Origin: Candidatus Fimimonas merdipullorum
GTDB lineage: Bacteria; Bacillota; Clostridia; Christensenellales; CAG-314
DNA length: 54,979 nt
Assembly: GCA_018713905.1 (NCBI GenBank)
Contig: DVOC01000065.1
Location: forward strand, 1-54,979
Reading direction: 5' to 3'
Numbering within the stretch: position 1 is the first letter of the stretch; every line of letters begins with the position of its first letter. The position numbers and the translations under genes were made by a program. Below are positions 31,270-53,122 of this stretch, piece after piece. The notes beneath the pieces are model-generated. The model had not been told where the DNA came from and made no database searches. It saw only the letters and a program-made list of their open reading frames with translations.

Positions 31270-31424
31270 AAAAAACGGCTTGCCGCGTGGGACAAGACCG
31301 GTTTGCACTCCATTCCTTTCGCCGTCCCATCTTTCAGGGTGATTGCCCTGCGGAAATTAGCACCTAACGGTATTTTAGGTTGCTGTGACTTCATCGAGTC
31401 CGTCTCTCTGTCACTCTCGATAGG
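31270..31424 (-). promoter_or_regulatory. SAM-I (S-box) riboswitch with terminator expression platform, leader of metK
   Basis: Minus-strand RNA CCUAUCGAGAGUGACAGAGAGACGGACUCGAUGAAGUCACAGCAACCUAA..UUAGGUGCUAAUUUCCGCAGGG..CCCUGAAAGAUGGGA (31424-31325) has the P1-P4 layout and conserved AUGAA / GCAACC / GGUGCUAAUU / GAAAGAU blocks. A CGGUCUUGUCC-CACGC-GGCAAGCCG hairpin plus UUUUUU lies at 31301-31270. Confidence 0.8.
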
Positions 31425-31435
31425 TTATTGCCCAT

Positions 31436-31464: not shown

Positions 31465-31606
31465 CTCACCTTGCCGCACCTTGCCGGTGGGGCGAGTAGC
31501 GCACCTTGCCGGTGGGGCGACCGACGTATCTGCTTGTGGCTGACGTTTATGCTATCGGCTTGAATGCGCTTTCGTGAAACATACGGCATTTGTGGCTGAC
31601 GTTCGT
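31459..31606 (-). repeat. Array R2 of the modular repeat family (about 1.5 units, inverted orientation)
   Basis: Contains caccttgccgcaccttgccggtggggcgagtagcgcaccttgccggtggggcgaccgacgtatctgcttgtggctgacgtttatgctatcggctt, the reverse complement of the unit seen in R3 and R4. Confidence 0.8.
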
Positions 31607-42490: not shown

Positions 42491-42772
42491 GCACCTGCAA
42501 ATACATTTGAAGCCGACGACAAAAACGTCAGGCATAGGCATATACGCCAGTCGCCCCACCGGCAAGGTGCCACACCGGCAAATACATTTGAAGCCGACGA
42601 CAAAAACGTCAGGCATAGGCATATACGCCGGTCGCCCCACCGGCTAGGTGGCCTCACCGGCTAGGTGCGCCGGCAAAACAACTTAAAGCCGATAGCGTAA
42701 ACGTCGGCAACAAGCATATACGCCACTCGCCCCACCGGCAAGGTGGCCTCACCGGCTAGGTGCGGCAAGGTG
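42491..42772 (+). repeat. Array R3 of the modular repeat family (3 units, 81-95 bp) inside the feo operon
   Basis: Unit starts at 42497, 42578 and 42673 (GCAAAtACAtTTgAAGCCGAcgaCaAAAACGTCaGGCAtAgGCATATACGCCnGTCGCCCCACCGGCAAGGTG plus extra CCTCACCGGCTAGGTG mini-repeats). The first two units are nearly identical. Confidence 0.85.
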
Positions 42773-44395: not shown

Positions 44396-44910
44396 ACAAA
44401 ACAATTAAAGCCGATAGCGTAAACGCCCTGCACCTTCAAACACTTAAAGGCAAGGGCAACGATAGCCACCAGCACATATGCCCTTCAAAATACGTATAAA
44501 GCCGATAGCGTAAACGTCAGCCACCAACAAATACGCCAATCGCCCCACCGGCAAGGCGCGCCAGTCGCCCCACCGGCAAGGTGCGCTCGGCGCGTAGCCG
44601 CGGCAAAGTGAAACTCTTTTAGTGGAGAACTTAAACGTAAGCCACACACTCAAACGTCACTCGCCCCACCGGCAAGGTGCCACACCGGCAAGGTGCGCTC
44701 GGCGCGTAGCCGCGGCAAGGTGAAACTCTTTTAGTGGAGAACTCAAGCGTAAGCCACACACTCAAACGTCGCTCGCCCCACCGGCGAGGTGCCACACCGG
44801 CAAGGTGCGCCGGCAAAACAACTTAAAGCCGATAGCGTAAACGTCGGCAACAAGCATATACGCCACTCGCCTCGCCGGCAAGGCGCGCCAGTCGCCCCAC
44901 CGGCAAGGTG
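44396..44910 (+). repeat. Array R4 of the modular repeat family (5-6 units, includes a 112-bp tandem duplication)
   Basis: GTGCGCTCGGCGCGTAGCCGCGGCAAnGTGAAACTCTTTTAGTGGAGAACT...CTCGCCCCACCGGCnAGGTGCCACACCGGCAAG occurs at 44581 and again at 44693. The terminal unit 44805-44871 is identical to 42665-42731. Confidence 0.85.
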
Positions 44911-47838: not shown

Positions 47839-50733
47839 TCAGTCAACAAAAGTTACCGTTACCGTGGCGCTTTGGTTGGTGATACTTTCCACCTTTACGT
47901 CGAAATTTACGGCTTTGCCGTCGTTGCGGCAGTAGTTGAACACCGCAGACAGACTGCCGCCCGCCTGCCACAAGTCGCTTGCCGCGGCGTAGCCGTTGGT
48001 GCTGCGGAACTTGGTTTCGCCGTCCGCCTCCACCAGCTTGAGCAGCGGCTCGGAGGTGAGAGAGTTGTTGCAGTCGGTAAAGGAGCCGTATTCGTCGGAA
48101 TAGGGGTTATTTGCCCACCCCGTCACGTGGTAGATACGCACGCCCTTTTGCGCCCCGCCGTAAAGCAGGCTGTCCGGCTGCATTGCGTGCATCTGGTTGA
48201 GCCCGGTCGCCGTGTAGAAGTCTATCAGCAGGTACTCGGAAAAATAGGAGTTGTCGAAGTTGAGCATTATAAGCAGGCAGTCGCCGCTTTCGGCAAAGGG
48301 GGACAGCGTAAAGGTGCCGTTTTGCGTGACTATCTGCGGAGTCGTCCACCCCAGCATTATTTTGGAATAGGCGCTGTGGTCGCCCACCGTGTAGTCCATC
48401 ATATCGGCGCCGCCCACACCCTCGTCGCTGCCGCTGTCGGGATAGTAGTCGTAGTAGTCGTCCAGCCCCAAAAGGTGCCCCGTTTCGTGAATATAGGTAG
48501 AGGCGTTTATTTGCAGCCCGTCTATTTTGCCGTTGTATTCAAAACCGTCGGCTCTGTCGGCGTCCTCGTCCATAAAGTCAAAACCGGCAAACAGATAGTA
48601 GTAGGCGTCCAGCCCGTCGTACTGTTCGGCGCCCATATACCACGTTACGTACGCCCAATAGAAGGAGTCGGCGGAATAGTCCACGTCGGCGGAATAGATG
48701 AGGTACACCGCGTCTATGCAGCCGTCGCCGTTGGAGTCGTACTGCGAAAGGTCTATTCTGCCTTCCAGCCACGCCAGCACTTCCCTGAACAAGGCGTCGC
48801 TGCCGTACTCGGTGTATTGGTAGTCGCCGTCGGAAACCGTTTCGTTGTAGTTGGCGTAGTAGGAGGAGTTGTGCTGCGCCGTGTAGACGGAATTTACCCC
48901 CGCAAGGTTGTAGCCGGCAATATCGAAGCTGACGTTCAGCTTGCCGTAGGAAGATGCGGCGTAGTAGGTGTTGACGCTTTGCCAGCCCGTGTCGTCGCCG
49001 CTGCCGTTGAAGGCAAGGTTGAGCTTGTTCAGATCCGCCGAGGTTATCGCCGCCACGTCGGAAAACTGCACCGGCACCACAAGGCAGTCGTAGGTGCCCT
49101 GCGAGGGCAGTCCCACCACGTTTTCGTACCCCATAAGCTTGTCCTGCAAGCGAGAATCGTCAAAGGTCTGCTCATCGTAGCTTTGCGACGGCATGACGTT
49201 GCCTTCGCCACCGCCGCCAAGCTTGCCGTTTATCGACACGGCGGAGATATACATGGATTTTTCCGTGTTGGTGGGGGTAAGAACTATCGTCACAAGCCCG
49301 CTCGCCTGCCCGTCAGGCACAAAGTTTAGGGTGGTGTTTTCGGAAAAATGCGTCTGCTGCGCCACCATCACTTCCGTCTGCCCGTCGCATTTGAGAGCGG
49401 CGCTGCCCACAAACACCTGAACCGTCATTCCCGTAGAGCAGTTGGTGGCTACAATTACGCTTACCGTGGTCACTTCCGTGACGGAAGCCTCGGAAACTAT
49501 GGTTACCGCGCCGTTTCTTTGCAGAAACTGCACGCCGCGGTTGCCGTCGAAGCCGTTGGACACGGCGTCCGTCGTGTAGCCCAGCTGCCCCGCCGCCACC
49601 GTAAGGCGGTTGTCGGTAAACACCGATTTCATATCCGTCGCCGACTCTACGTCCTCGCCGCCCGTGCCGCCGCTGCCGTCGTCGGGCAAAGTGAACGAGG
49701 CGTTGCCGTAGTCGGAAAATTCCGCCACGAACAGGTAGCTGCCGCCGTACTCTGCGGAGGTGTCGCTCTGCTCCGCCACTATCTTGGCTATTTTGCCCTG
49801 CTCCACGTACAGCGCAAGGGACGTCCACGTGCTGTCTTCGTACTCGCCGAAAATCAGGTTGCCCGCCGCATTTGCGTCCGCCGCAGCGTAGCCGTCGCCG
49901 TCGGCAACGAATTTAAGACTGCCCAACCCCTGAACGTTTACGTAATCCATAGAGTAGTAATAGTCCATAAAGTAGGCGTCCGTCTGGTCTATTACGGTAT
50001 AACTGCCGCCGCCGTTGTCGTAGTAGTAGAAGTAACCGTTCAGGTCCGCCCTGTATTCCAAGTAGTCGGTGTACCACGCGCCTTCGTATTCGTACGTCAT
50101 AGCCACGTCGTCGCCGTACATTTTCAAGGTGTCGGTGTAGCTTACTTCCCCTTCGTAATACATGGTGTACTGCACCTTGAAGTTGTACAGGCTTGCGTCT
50201 TCGTACTGCGCAAACACGTCGGAAAGGTCGGCGTCCTCGCCAATGGCGGGGTTGCTCCACTTGGCGTACACGTCCACGTTGCCCGAAAGGCTTTGCGGCA
50301 CGCTCCACGGAATTGTGCATGCGCTGTCGGCATACCAGCCGCCGAACACCATGCTGCCGTTGGTGGGCTGCGCCGGCAATGCAAAGTTGTCGTCGAAACG
50401 CACCACTGTGCTTTCGTCGCCGTTTTGCGGATGGAAAATTACGTAATACGCCGTCTGCGGCTCGCCCCACTTGGCGTACACCACCACGTTTTGGCTTAGG
50501 CTTTCAGGAACGCTCCACGGCGTGGTGCCTTGCTTGTCGGCAAACCACCCCAAAAATTGCTTGTCGCCGTTGGTGGGCTGCGCCGGCAACGTAAAGTTGT
50601 CGTCAAATGCCACCGTCTGCGGCTGCGTGCCGTTTTGCGCGTCGAACGTCACCGTAAAGGTGAGCGGCTGACACGCCGTAAGCACCAGACACAGCAACAG
50701 CACCGTTGCCGTTACAAAAGACAGTTTTTTCAT
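47839..50733 (-). CDS. Secreted lipoprotein: two Listeria-Bacteroides (Flg_new) repeats, an unknown middle region and an M6/immune-inhibitor-A-like metalloprotease domain
   Basis: Signal peptide plus lipobox (MKKLSFVTATVLLLCLVLTAC). Two repeats of TVxFDxQNG...FxLPAQPTNGxxxFxGWFAD...PW. HETGHLLGLDDYYDY zinc motif in the C-terminal half. Start set to ATG 50733 (AGGAG 5 nt upstream). Confidence 0.8.
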   Translation of the reverse strand: MKKLSFVTATVLLLCLVLTACQPLTFTVTFDAQNGTQPQTVAFDDNFTLPAQPTNGDKQFLGWFADKQGTTPWSVPESLSQNVVVYAKWGEPQTAYYVIFHPQNGDESTVVRFDDNFALPAQPTNGSMVFGGWYADSACTIPWSVPQSLSGNVDVYAKWSNPAIGEDADLSDVFAQYEDASLYNFKVQYTMYYEGEVSYTDTLKMYGDDVAMTYEYEGAWYTDYLEYRADLNGYFYYYDNGGGSYTVIDQTDAYFMDYYYSMDYVNVQGLGSLKFVADGDGYAAADANAAGNLIFGEYEDSTWTSLALYVEQGKIAKIVAEQSDTSAEYGGSYLFVAEFSDYGNASFTLPDDGSGGTGGEDVESATDMKSVFTDNRLTVAAGQLGYTTDAVSNGFDGNRGVQFLQRNGAVTIVSEASVTEVTTVSVIVATNCSTGMTVQVFVGSAALKCDGQTEVMVAQQTHFSENTTLNFVPDGQASGLVTIVLTPTNTEKSMYISAVSINGKLGGGGEGNVMPSQSYDEQTFDDSRLQDKLMGYENVVGLPSQGTYDCLVVPVQFSDVAAITSADLNKLNLAFNGSGDDTGWQSVNTYYAASSYGKLNVSFDIAGYNLAGVNSVYTAQHNSSYYANYNETVSDGDYQYTEYGSDALFREVLAWLEGRIDLSQYDSNGDGCIDAVYLIYSADVDYSADSFYWAYVTWYMGAEQYDGLDAYYYLFAGFDFMDEDADRADGFEYNGKIDGLQINASTYIHETGHLLGLDDYYDYYPDSGSDEGVGGADMMDYTVGDHSAYSKIMLGWTTPQIVTQNGTFTLSPFAESGDCLLIMLNFDNSYFSEYLLIDFYTATGLNQMHAMQPDSLLYGGAQKGVRIYHVTGWANNPYSDEYGSFTDCNNSLTSEPLLKLVEADGETKFRSTNGYAAASDLWQAGGSLSAVFNYCRNDGKAVNFDVKVESITNQSATVTVTFVD

Positions 50734-50775
50734 ATGCACTCCTGCGGCGCAAACTGCGCCTGTCGTTATGCCTAC

Positions 50776-50804: not shown

Positions 50805-51079
50805 CTCACCTTGCCGCACCTTGCCGCACCTCGCCGGTGAGGCGAGTAGCGTATTTGCTTGTGCCTGACGTTTACGCTATCGGCTTCAAGTTGTTTTTTT
50901 TGTGAGACGCCTTGCCGCACCTTGCCGGTGGGGCACCTCGCCGGTGGGGCGACCGGCGTATTTGCTTATGCCTGACGTTTACGCTATCGGCTTTAAGTTG
51001 CAGCATTCGCCCTGCAAGCACCGTCGGATTGTTGCCCCGCAAGCGCTTTTGACACAAAAACTCGCCACCGTATGCAAAA
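50799..51079 (-). repeat. Array R5 of the modular repeat family (2 units) plus an about 80-bp tail shared only with R6
   Basis: Two copies of gcctgacgtttacgctatcggcttnaagtt with caccttgcc/cacctcgcc mini-repeats. The tail 50997-51079 (ttgcagcattcgccctgcaagcaccgtcggattgttgccccgcaagcgcttttg...) recurs at 52998-53080. Confidence 0.85.
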
Positions 51080-51097
51080 ACTCCGCACAAGGCGGAG
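51074..51097 (-). terminator. Candidate terminator of the low-GC three-gene operon
   Basis: Minus-strand CTCCGC-CTTGT-GCGGAG hairpin followed by TTTTTGCAT, 44 nt after the stop at 51141. Confidence 0.45.
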
Positions 51098-51140
51098 CTT
51101 TTGCGTTTAACGTTGCGGCGTTCTGTTCGTCGAGAATATG

Positions 51141-51626
51141 CTATTTTGTCGCTTTAACGTTTATGATAAGCGTCAATTCTCTGTCGGGAAATTCATTTTC
51201 TCCCCAGACAGAAATTTTACGGATATATTGTCCCGGCGTATCTATTTCACTATACGGATCGGGCACATTGCCGTATCTCTCTATATATCTGTATGCTGTA
51301 TATGTGACGCGTATCGGTTCACCTGCCCCTCCTGAACCGGCAGGTGTAAACCAACTGTTATATCTCGGATCGCCGGGTACGCGAATTAATCCCTCTCCAA
51401 ACCACACGTATTCCGTCAAGTAATCCACGGTTATTTCTATCTTGTCCGTTTTGTCGTCGAAAACTATTTCCACTGGAAACGCGTACTCTATTTTAGACTC
51501 CCGTTCACCATAATAGAATGTCGGCTTAAACCAAACTGCCGGTTCGTATTTGTCGTAACATGCGGCAAGGGAGAAAGCCGCAACGAGCAACAATACCGAC
51601 ACTAAAACTACCGCTAACTTTTTCAT
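51141..51626 (-). CDS. Lipoprotein of unknown function (161 aa), low-GC island gene 3
   Basis: Signal peptide plus lipobox MKKLAVVLVSVLLLVAAFSLAAC. GAGGAGGG RBS. AT-rich codon usage unlike the flanking genes. I recognise no family. Confidence 0.65.
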   Translation of the reverse strand: MKKLAVVLVSVLLLVAAFSLAACYDKYEPAVWFKPTFYYGERESKIEYAFPVEIVFDDKTDKIEITVDYLTEYVWFGEGLIRVPGDPRYNSWFTPAGSGGAGEPIRVTYTAYRYIERYGNVPDPYSEIDTPGQYIRKISVWGENEFPDRELTLIINVKATK

Positions 51627-51636
51627 GATGCCCTCC

Positions 51637-51978
51637 TCAGTTCAGATAGGCGGAGTATCTTTCCGCCAACGCAATCAGCGTTTCTGTGTCTATCATTCCT
51701 TTGCCCACGGCAATTTTAAGATAACTGCCGTTAAACGCTTCGAATACCTGCTGCGACACGGGTACAAGCTGCGAAAATTCCTCGTAAGTGTACAATCCGT
51801 ATTCCGCTATATCTTCTGCCATTTTTGCTTGATCTATCTTCATGGTGTCTTTGTCCACTTCAAAGATATTAAACATTCCGTCTATTCCGCCCGGCACGGA
51901 CAACATTCCGTTGACGTAGTAGCACAAATGGCTGTACGTGATCGGGATGTGAGCCATGGTTACAATTTTTTTCGACAT
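51637..51978 (-). CDS. Small cytoplasmic protein (113 aa) of unknown function, low-GC island gene 2
   Basis: ATG 51978 with GAGGAG 6 nt upstream (the ORF track starts at GTG 52044). No signal peptide. The sequence HLCYYVNGMLS...YGLYTYEEF...FNGSYLKIAVGKG recalls the region after the Hint domain of large clostridial surface proteins (from memory, unverified). Confidence 0.5.
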   Translation of the reverse strand: MSKKIVTMAHIPITYSHLCYYVNGMLSVPGGIDGMFNIFEVDKDTMKIDQAKMAEDIAEYGLYTYEEFSQLVPVSQQVFEAFNGSYLKIAVGKGMIDTETLIALAERYSAYLN

Positions 51979-52043
51979 GATTATCTCCTCATCGGTTTTA
52001 GGTATATTTATGTTGTATATGCACGTCTGACTGATTTGTCGCA

Positions 52044-52559
52044 CTACTCTTCTATATCAATGTCGGCAAGTTTGATTTCGAGATGGATTTTGCGTGAAGG
52101 TACACTTTTTACTCCGGCATCAAACTCTATATCAAACACGTATATTCCTTTTCCTGACACAAGCTCAATTGCGCTGTCGGGATAAATATAATCGGGTATT
52201 CCTCCTGCAGAAGCTAACCAACTCGGATCACTGTCCTTTTCATGCTCGAGATAGTGTGAAGTCATGTGGATCGACAAGTAATCCAAGTAGTCTTCGGCGA
52301 ATTTCCATTCTCCGTCTTTGTCTTTTTGTGGAACGCAAAATTGATAGAAGCTGAGTTCTGCCGCAGGTGCGTCTATCGTCAGATAAACTCTGTTTACCCC
52401 CGGATAAAAGGTGACTATCTGCTTGTTTCCCTCCCCATACGTAATAAGCATGGAGAAGGAGGTGTGCCGCTTTTCCTCTTCGCATGCGCCAAAGGCAAGG
52501 CACGTTATCAGCAGCAGTACTGCCAATGCTACCACAGCCGACTTTTTGATTTTGGTCAT
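52044..52559 (-). CDS. Lipoprotein of unknown function (171 aa), low-GC island gene 1
   Basis: MTKIKKSAVVALAVLLLITCLAFGAC signal peptide plus lipobox. Start set to ATG 52559 (AAAGGGAGGAAG RBS). AT-rich. Confidence 0.65.
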   Translation of the reverse strand: MTKIKKSAVVALAVLLLITCLAFGACEEEKRHTSFSMLITYGEGNKQIVTFYPGVNRVYLTIDAPAAELSFYQFCVPQKDKDGEWKFAEDYLDYLSIHMTSHYLEHEKDSDPSWLASAGGIPDYIYPDSAIELVSGKGIYVFDIEFDAGVKSVPSRKIHLEIKLADIDIEE

Positions 52560-52648
52560 AGAACTTCCTCCCTTTATTTTTACGGACAGCGTCCGCAAGA
52601 ATCAAAAAATACAAATTTTGCACGAAATAAAGCCCTCGTTGCAAATAT

Positions 52649-52677
52649 ATTATATAACTTATAAATGATTTTTGCAA
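52649..52677 (-). promoter_or_regulatory. Promoter of the low-GC operon (TTGCAA-17-TATAAT)
   Basis: Minus strand: TTGCAA (52677-52672), 17-nt spacer, TATAAT (52654-52649). Lies 38 bp from the end of array R6. Confidence 0.5.
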
Positions 52678-52715
52678 TAGTAATTATCAATAATGAACCA
52701 AGTTTTTTATTGAAA

Positions 52716-53080
52716 CACCTCGCCGCACCTCGCCGGCGAGGCGACTGACGTTTGAGTTTATTACTTGCGTTCACGTCCTCTACTAAAAGAGTTTTGCCGG
52801 TGGGGCGACCGGCGTATTTGCTTGTGCCTGACGTTTACGCTATCGGCTTCAAGTTATTTTTTTGTGAGACGCCTTGCCGGTGGGGCGAGTGGCGTCTATG
52901 CCTATGACTGACGTTGGGTAATCCACTAAAAACACCTTCCGGTGGGGAGAGTAGCGTATTTGCTGCCTGTGCCTGACGTTTACGCTATCGGCTTCAAGTT
53001 GCAGCGTTCGCCCTGCAAGCACCGTCGGATTGTTGCCCCGCAAGCGCTTTTGTCGCAAAAACTCGCCGCCGTTTGCAAAA
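52716..53080 (-). repeat. Array R6 of the modular repeat family (about 3 units) plus the tail shared with R5
   Basis: cacctcgccgcacctcgccggcgagg mini-repeats, the rc of the GTGAAACTCTTTTAGTGGAG module (ctctactaaaagagtttt), two gcctgacgtttacgctatcggcttcaagtt cores, then the tail 52998-53080. Confidence 0.85.
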
Positions 53081-53122
53081 TTCCCGTCACCATGCCGACG
53101 TTCCCCACAACAAAAAAACAGG

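Follow-up and report, generated by a model that had tools for sequence, protein, structure and literature searches.

The window analyzed in this work is the whole 54,979-nucleotide (nt) stretch of contig DVOC01000065.1 from the Candidatus Fimimonas merdipullorum assembly GCA_018713905.1, and its subject is a three-gene operon located on the minus strand. The first gene, g1 (52559..52044), encodes a predicted lipoprotein of 171 amino acids (aa) with the lipobox FGAC. The second, g2 (51978..51637), encodes a 113-aa remnant of a Hint domain end and its tail. The third, g3 (51626..51141), is separated from g2 by 10 nt and encodes a predicted 161-aa lipoprotein with the lipobox LAAC. The ribosome binding sites (RBSs) of g1, g2, and g3 are AAAGGGAGG, GAGGAG, and GAGGAGGG, respectively, and are located 6 to 9 nt 5′ of each ATG. 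A sigma-70-like promoter, TTGCAA-17-TATAAT, is located at 52677..52649 (minus strand); the strand contains no second promoter-like site in the interval from the upstream repeat block to g1. A terminator-like hairpin, CTCCGC-loop-GCGGAG followed by TTTTT (51081-51097, minus strand), lies directly after g3. In a pattern and consensus scan, sites of the promoter and terminator types were no commoner than in shuffled sequence; both assignments are backed by position, not by statistics. The guanine-cytosine (GC) content of the operon is 0.44 (range, 0.42 to 0.46) compared to 0.54 in the window and 0.55 to 0.59 in the flanks, and that of the islet in which the operon lies is nine points below the window value.

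An earlier note on this DNA, made from the letters alone, had listed three open reading frames (ORFs) with their RBSs, a single promoter, a single terminator, and a low GC content, and all of these were found as claimed. The note had recognized no family for g1 and g3, and Pfam and NCBIfam searches likewise gave no family match for g1, g2, or g3. The three genes are real, since exactly the same g2 protein is encoded on at least 15 contigs from independent samples, each with an intact g1 and g3.

To find homologues of g2, we searched 1.84 billion representative proteins. At least 1,972 cluster representatives end in ~106 residues that match residues 7 to 112 of g2, and almost all of these proteins are 500 to 3,700 aa long. 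This stretch of g2 is 55 to 68% identical to the C termini of the best 150 representatives, with E values down to 1e-43. In a 1,240-aa protein of the same genus, residues 1130 to 1239 align with residues 3 to 112 of g2 (E 2e-44), and same-genus relatives hold intact genes of this type coding for 834 to 1,249 aa. In full-length relatives, the last ~235 residues are constant, while the N-terminal cargo is variable and includes trypsin-like, M64, C39-like, and S8 peptidases, an alpha/beta-hydrolase, BspA-type leucine-rich repeats (LRRs; LRR_5), and Listeria-Bacteroides repeats. The constant module is marked by the motifs C-(V/I)-A-x-G-T-L-I-T-L-A-D-G ... I-S-E-H-G-F-W ... Y-I-G-H-W-F ... H-L-C-Y-Y-V-N-G-M-L-S-M-P-G-G, after which the tail begins; the mean column identity of the Hint and tail module is 57 to 71% in family alignments. 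Proteins of the family are closed by the tail consensus NIFEVD...YGLYTYEEF...YLK(V/I)A(I/V)GKG...RY, whose invariant columns, including K, G-K-G, and Y, are kept in g2. The nucleophile, Cys at alignment position 4, is present in at least 90% of relatives. Their block-B motif, ISEH(G/A)FW, contains a near-invariant His and is missing from g2. In both the family and g2, the Hint fold ends in ...YYVNGMLS(M/V)PGG, with no His-Asn and no +1 nucleophile, which is not the ending of a splicing intein.

At the sequence level, hints of a Hint domain are weak (PF01079, E 0.011; DnaB intein, E 0.11). The family profile gave only marginal matches against PDB sequences (DnaB intein, E 0.11; ataxin AXH, E 0.035), and g2 by itself gave only noise against families and solved structures. 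An AlphaFold2 model of the Hint and tail region of one relative, built with 58 sequences in the alignment, has a predicted local distance difference test score (pLDDT) of 94.4. In Foldseek, the first ~150 residues of this model match BIL2 (6y75), the DnaB and RecA mini-inteins, and hedgehog (1at0), with E values of 1e-8 to 1e-6 and template modeling (TM) scores of 0.75 to 0.82. The last Hint strands of the model are at residues 111 to 149, and residues 171 to 233 form six short helices with a pLDDT of 83 to 98. The Hint and tail profile matches g2 at positions 123 to 233 of 234 only, which corresponds to the last strands and the tail; a complete Hint fold of ~140 to 150 residues is not present. 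Within g2, residues 8 to 31 (MAHIPITYSHLCYYVNGMLSVPGG; 51886..51957, minus strand) are assigned to the last Hint strands by the profile match and the relative's model. The conserved helical tail is assigned to approximately residues 49 to 113 (51640..51834, minus strand) by the same model and the invariant columns. Overall, g2 is the end of a Hint domain followed by the conserved helical tail of large surface proteins from uncultured gut Clostridia. The suggestion of the earlier note that g2 resembles the region after the Hint domain of such proteins was right, residues 7 to 112 being their extreme C terminus according to the homologue search, the model, and the profile.

Our literature search found no published description of this bacterial Hint-tail family. 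Its parent proteins can be compared to the Hog domain of Hedgehog and Hedgehog-related proteins (PF01079, 1at0; PMC2362128, PMC7906309), since in both groups the N-terminal cargo is variable, Cys is the first residue of the Hint domain, a short conserved region follows at the C terminus, and a C-terminal His-Asn is lacking. The likeness includes a fold match to 1at0 (E 6e-7, TM 0.75) in addition to the weak PF01079 match. Unlike Hog proteins, members of the Hint-tail family are bacterial, Sec-secreted, and carry the module on surface enzymes and adhesins; their six-helix tail domain showed no similarity to the sterol-recognition region, and no acceptor is known. With only the last Hint strands and the tail, g2 itself cannot work as a Hog domain. 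The top structural matches of the parent family are BIL domains (Clostridium thermocellum, 2lwy; Tetrahymena BIL2, 6y75), Hint-fold domains of secreted and surface proteins that cleave rather than splice. However, BIL domains are internal and have variable flanks, whereas in the parent family the Hint domain invariably precedes one and the same conserved tail, and the two form the end of the protein. Genes for Hint-tail proteins have a GC content ~5.5 points under that of their surroundings in 51 of 59 loci.

The 113-aa protein contains 7 residues ahead of the Hint remnant and has no hydrophobic segment, no signal peptide, and no cargo; the Cys nucleophile and the block-B His are both in the deleted part. 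At the junction of the window allele, codon 7 is joined to a position corresponding to approximately residue 1130 of the full-length protein, and ~1,100 codons are gone. Two conspecific alleles, P0017 (178 aa) and P0032 (153 aa), start with the identical MSKKIVT. In these alleles, a signal peptide and N-terminal domain align to residues 2 to 114 of the same-genus 1,240-aa protein (41% identity, E 1e-18), after which the alignment jumps to residue 1166 or 1186 and continues through residue 1239. In P0017, the signal peptide is present along with ~70 residues of the N-terminal domain, and the DNA that this allele shares with the window allele is limited to the first 23 nt and the last ~228 nt. 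Since each of these two alleles keeps a part that is missing from the other, at least two independent deletions of a full-length ancestor must have occurred. P0032 is derivable from P0017 by the loss of 75 nt between the 13-nt near-repeats GCGGA(G/A)TACGGAT. The start codon and RBS of g2 are those of the full gene, whose signal peptide survives in sister alleles; g2 is therefore a deletion product. When the window's own genome (91% complete) was searched with the Hint and tail profile, only g2 matched and no second copy of Hint or tail was detected; therefore, there is no partner for a split Hint. Decayed Hint-tail copies, either frameshifted or partly deleted, were present in at least 6 of ~78 loci from species representatives, including the Candidatus Limihabitans locus described next.

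In Candidatus Limihabitans stercoravium (DVLO01000008.1; L002, 4660-8441), the homologous big gene is split by a frameshift into two ORFs, of 1,114 and 146 aa, with a 4-nt overlap inside the Hint domain, and a by-eye protein comparison with intact relatives suggests a 1-nt deletion (…FWDFDLNG|YVYM…). An extracytoplasmic function (ECF) sigma factor gene and two unassigned genes lie 5′ of the two lipoprotein genes of this locus. In other lineages, ORFs of 121 to 147 aa start at Hint position ~107 (L055, 5153-8330; L097, 7878-8321). At L055, the short Hint-end ORF directly follows and overlaps a 943-aa gene of the lipoprotein-type surface-protein class, an arrangement suggesting that the cargo gene has remained open although the first two thirds of the Hint domain were lost. 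The protein P0004 (113 aa, on a 916-bp ENA contig) has the same MSKKIVT|MAH junction as g2 and a tail that is only ~71% identical and nearer to other family members, which suggests recombination within the remnant. One rabbit-gut metagenome-assembled genome (MAG) contains two convergent Hint-tail gene ends within 2.3 kb [L080, 8001-8333 (+) and 9927-10619 (-)]. A further MAG, deposited as "Corallococcus sp." (L084, JAMPEJ010000002.1), represents same-genus Clostridia and is probably mislabeled.

The g1 product starts with MTKIKK...LAFGAC and that of g3 with MKK...FSLAAC; each has a basic start, a hydrophobic stretch, and a lipobox Cys, as read from the sequence. The lipobox Cys is invariant in an alignment with related lipoproteins. 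FGAC is the real lipobox of g1, since the b allele described below has Ser in place of the earlier Cys20 and keeps FGAC. In a search of 5.8 billion proteins, homologues of g1 and g3 were conspecific only; in same-genus genomes, weak N-terminal matches were obtained for g3 only (E ~0.002 to 0.003). A model of g3 is an all-beta immunoglobulin (Ig)-like sandwich (pLDDT 76.6) whose structure search gave generic Ig-like/E-set matches with TM scores of at most 0.43 and no specific relative. The earlier proposal that g1 and g3 are distant paralogues was not confirmed (BLASTP E 1.7; hhalign E 0.11).

There are two allele classes, a and b, of g1 and g3, which are 70% identical. Most operons combine a with a or b with b, and one is a mosaic; the 113-aa g2 is found with both classes. 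The divergence is patchy: identity drops to 50 to 75% in g1 codons 81 to 160 and g3 codons 36 to 150, while the flanks, the promoter, g2, and the gene ends are 97 to 100% identical between the classes. The synonymous divergence (dS) is 1.29 for g1 residues 81 to 160 and 0.60 for g3 residues 36 to 150, compared to 0.03 to 0.09 for neighboring genes, and the ratio of nonsynonymous to synonymous divergence (dN/dS; Nei-Gojobori) in the variable patches is ~0.37 to 0.55. A diversity-generating retroelement or in situ positive selection was considered for these patches and ruled out by a dN/dS below 1 and the very high dS (0.6 to 1.3), despite a first codon count that was mostly nonsynonymous. Since dS is very high and dN/dS is 0.37 to 0.54, the patches represent old or imported alleles rather than fast local evolution. 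Judged by this divergence, they are old alleles that are held by balancing selection or were brought in by recombination. Dimorphic surface-antigen loci are similar in that two deeply diverged surface-protein alleles occur in otherwise 98 to 99% identical genomes.

The operon is flanked by direct repeats of ~290 nt. The left copy (50830..51085, core 50963-51079) is also the upstream region of the neighboring 966-aa gene, and the right copy occupies 52790..53085 (core 52964-53080); the 117-nt cores share 93% identity and are offset by exactly 2,001 bp. A genome-wide intergenic repeat accounts for the first ~38 nt of the core, and the other ~80 nt are confined to these two copies. Empty sites were found in loci L113 to L116 and in 17 similar places, among 23 contigs with an identical neighboring ABC ATPase. 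At these sites, the ABC gene lies ~420 bp from a 964-aa Flg_new gene, and the single repeat copy aligns to both copies of the window. The empty sites define a 2,001-bp indel (51080..53080) consisting of the operon and one repeat copy. One of the surveyed loci carries the islet with the P0017 allele. Thus, the islet is an insertion/deletion polymorphism that is absent from most strains, and the foreign-GC cassette of the earlier note is a real accessory islet. It resembles islets moved by recombination between direct repeats in its 2-kb indel, its ~290-nt repeats, and its single-copy empty sites. It differs in that it contains no integrase, transposase, or att-type core, and its repeat comes in part from a genome-wide intergenic family found upstream of promoters. 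An Rfam search of the whole window gave only the SAM riboswitch described below and nothing in the repeats.

In two same-genus relatives and in Candidatus Limihabitans, two small lipoprotein genes are located directly upstream of the homologous big gene. To estimate how common this arrangement is, we counted upstream lipoprotein ORFs of 120 to 260 aa that are on the same strand and end within 700 nt, using species-representative loci. Such an ORF was present for 21 of 50 Hint-tail genes; among the remaining long ORFs of these loci, used as controls, it was present for 4 of 132 (odds ratio 23, p 2e-10). The partner lipoproteins belong to several sequence-unrelated families, and the family follows the cargo type. 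Big genes of the LRR/Flg_new type (cargo cluster 1) are accompanied by families of 223-aa and 181-aa lipoproteins, S8 subtilases (cluster 2) by a 16-member lipoprotein family, and the window's type (cluster 3) by a lipoprotein family that g3 weakly resembles. The enrichment and the co-variation suggest that the lipoproteins are cognate partners. Contact with the cargo, and not with the constant Hint and tail, would be expected of a partner that changes along with the cargo, and the co-variation favors a binder or inhibitor over an acceptor for Hint-mediated transfer. It could also come from the shared ancestry of whole operons; the pair has been kept together nonetheless.

In loci L029, L041, L045, L065, L067, L100, and others of cargo cluster 2, each S8 Hint-tail gene is preceded by a gene of a ~160- to 195-aa lipoprotein family with the motif GxFY(T/S)L.EAY..GWL and no Pfam match. 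This family is a candidate membrane-anchored protease partner.

Taken together, we consider it probable that the locus is a decaying accessory surface-protein operon in which the big Hint gene has been reduced to a stump while the two lipoprotein genes are still in use. The ancestral operon would have encoded a Sec-secreted protein of ~1,200 aa and accompanying small lipoproteins. This protein would have begun with a signal peptide and a conserved N-terminal domain ~100 aa long, carried Listeria-Bacteroides repeats in its large cargo, and ended in a Hint domain with its small helical tail. In intact relatives, the fold and the conserved Cys and His suggest that the Hint domain forms a thioester at its first Cys and either frees the cargo or hands it to an acceptor. 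A deletion in this strain would have fused codon 7 to approximately codon 1,130, leaving a 113-aa product that is probably cytoplasmic. Having no signal peptide, cargo, nucleophile, or block-B His, g2 cannot autoprocess and is most likely functionless; it would still be transcribed through its position between g1 and g3. The single promoter would still drive g1 and g3, whose products would be exposed on the outside of the membrane, and these products are likely cognate partners of the N-terminal cargo of the lost protein, which they may have bound or inhibited. Recombination between the ~290-nt repeats could remove the 2-kb unit, which would fit its absence from most strains.

Several observations weigh against this explanation. 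The lipoprotein call for g1 and g3 comes from sequence patterns only, and both genes are intact on every contig seen without the supposed partner, so they may have a function of their own. The similarity of g3 to the lipoproteins of relatives is weak (hhalign E 0.004, probability 8%, 95 collinear columns; controls, E 0.03 to 0.7). In an iterated hidden Markov model (HMM) search with decoys, g3 scored 10.9 bits with the same-genus partner-lipoprotein cluster, and the best decoy scored 11.4. No homology signal between g1 and the lipoproteins of relatives was obtained by BLASTP, iterated HMM search, or hhalign, and the shared motifs (W, G-x-Y, R-x3-L-x-I-x-V) were seen by eye only. No full-length conspecific allele was present in a JGI metagenome scan with P0017, and all public contigs with these lipoprotein alleles were either ~2 kb long or carried deletion alleles; the long-read contig L104 contained too many errors to be used in the search for a full-length gene. 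Every known deletion allele preserves the frame, the start, the RBS, and the stop, which could mean that the stump is used. However, our protein-based search would have missed out-of-frame alleles, and chance alone would put both primary junctions in frame in 1/9 of cases. In addition, standalone 111- to 124-aa ORFs of the g2 type recur in other lineages, and g2 tail alleles differ at 3 sites only (dN/dS 0.13), too few to separate constraint from neutrality.

As a dead remnant, g2 would itself be ordinary, and its value would lie in what tracing it led to. The Hint-tail family is very large, apparently undescribed, and, as the decayed copies show, repeatedly lost by deletion or frameshift in small-genome gut Clostridia. 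The adjacent lipoproteins that track the cargo provide a first contextual clue to this family, and their role as partners, inhibitors, or immunity proteins is directly testable. The locus is also a compact, strain-variable surface locus that might be used to tell strains apart in gut metagenomes and might exemplify balanced surface polymorphism.

The decaying-operon explanation can be extended by assuming that the big protein acted as a secreted effector enzyme, against which g1 and g3 serve as surface-anchored inhibitors or immunity proteins and would be retained, after its loss, as protection from kin that still produce it. We regard this extension as possible but unlikely. The immunity-like role that the earlier note had suggested for the lipoproteins is possible, and the neighborhood survey lends it indirect support: small lipoproteins are strongly enriched upstream of Hint-tail genes, and their family tracks the cargo, as in the case of the S8 subtilase with one lipoprotein family. 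However, this co-variation may merely reflect whole-operon inheritance, and no inhibitor or immunity family was detected in any partner lipoprotein. Cargo of the family is often a hydrolase (trypsin-like, M64, C39-like, S8, or alpha/beta-hydrolase), whereas the cargo of the window's subfamily has no recognized enzyme domain. The effector was lost at least twice with both lipoproteins kept intact, which speaks for an immunity role; yet no conspecific strain with an intact effector was found, hence there is no known attacker. The two old allele classes would fit a coevolving interface, but dN/dS in their variable patches is 0.4 to 0.55 and not above 1. A related proposal, to which we assign a rather low probability, is that the small lipoproteins linked to Hint-tail genes are membrane-anchored cognate inhibitors or immunity proteins for variable enzyme cargo. 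The islet would then be an immunity-only remnant whose effector was deleted at least twice and in which two old protective alleles are maintained. If this is true, the Hint-tail family would be a secreted effector-immunity system of gut Clostridia with a polarity reverse to that of polymorphic toxins, that is, with a variable N-terminal effector and a constant C-terminal release module.

Could g2 instead be a functional small protein that employs the tail anew in the cytoplasm, or half of a split Hint? The recurrence of in-frame alleles with an intact RBS in many samples and of similar 111- to 124-aa ORFs in other lineages speaks for this. However, such short ORFs elsewhere turned out to be big-gene ends with frameshifts or partial deletions, and the junction differs among sister alleles, removing different surroundings of the tail. 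The domain works outside the cell in the parent protein, and no N-terminal half of a Hint domain was found anywhere in the 91%-complete genome. We therefore consider a function of this kind improbable.

HINT-containing polymorphic toxins have a constant body and, following the HINT domain, a toxin tip that varies (PMC3482391). The earlier note had interpreted the locus along these lines, as a detached toxin-associated module next to lipoproteins. Under such an explanation, g2 would be an orphan cassette, a Hint end with a toxin tip stored by its immunity genes for later recombination into a full-length toxin gene. The locus does share several features with polymorphic toxin systems with orphan cassettes (PMC3482391), namely, a Hint domain near the C terminus of a large secreted protein, a small ORF that begins in the Hint end, adjacent small genes, and a strain-variable position. 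The g2 ORF starts inside the C-terminal Hint strands, where toxin cassettes are expected to start, a gene directly follows it, and the surroundings are low in GC and variable between strains. The polarity is, however, reversed: the post-Hint tail is one conserved domain across more than 1,900 clusters (mean column identity of the Hint and tail module in family alignments, 57 to 71%), with no variable tip, and it is the N-terminal cargo that varies. At this locus g3 directly follows g2, at the place of a cognate immunity gene, whereas the small lipoprotein genes of relatives sit upstream of the big gene, and no immunity family was detected. A Pfam scan of 15 full-length relatives revealed no LXG, Rhs, or toxin domains; neighborhoods were not scanned gene by gene. 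The genome itself contains no full-length Hint gene into which a cassette could recombine. Last, g2 and the sister alleles combine one and the same start and stop with different junctions, g2 has the RBS of the full gene, and the signal peptide of that gene is still present in the sister alleles. It was therefore left by internal deletion of a resident full-length gene and is not a detached module. Of the earlier interpretation, the relation to Hint and the foreign cassette held up, and the polymorphic-toxin module, whose defining variable tip is missing, did not. We consider an orphan toxin cassette very improbable.

The chance that a metagenome assembler collapsed a long gene into a short middle ORF is negligible: although the window comes from a 103-contig assembly and many public islet contigs are only ~1.9 to 2.0 kb long and end at the flanking repeats, the identical 113-aa protein recurs across independent samples, runs, and assemblers (at least 15 contigs), with the same neighbors on contigs of 24 kb and 83 kb, and the other junction alleles are replicated too.

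The intergenic repeat that contributes to the flanking copies is ~38 to 68 nt long (…GCCTGACGTTTACGCTATCGGCTTCAAGTT…) and often occurs in short arrays just upstream of promoters, with 16 matches in the 1.3-Mb assembly. Its sites are at 50817-51007, 52716-53008, 44405-44910, 42679-42716, and 31531-31564 of the window and on contigs C52 and C72 of the same genome. Many public short-read contigs of the islet stop at these repeats. Next to the islet, on the minus strand, lies a lipoprotein gene with Flg_new repeats (47839-50739, 966 aa) whose product is 964 to 966 aa long in most strains; in strains with the P0017 allele it is 770 aa, with residues ~177 to 360 missing. Elsewhere in the window, the minus strand contains a SAM riboswitch (RF00162, 76.7 bits) at 31324-31426.

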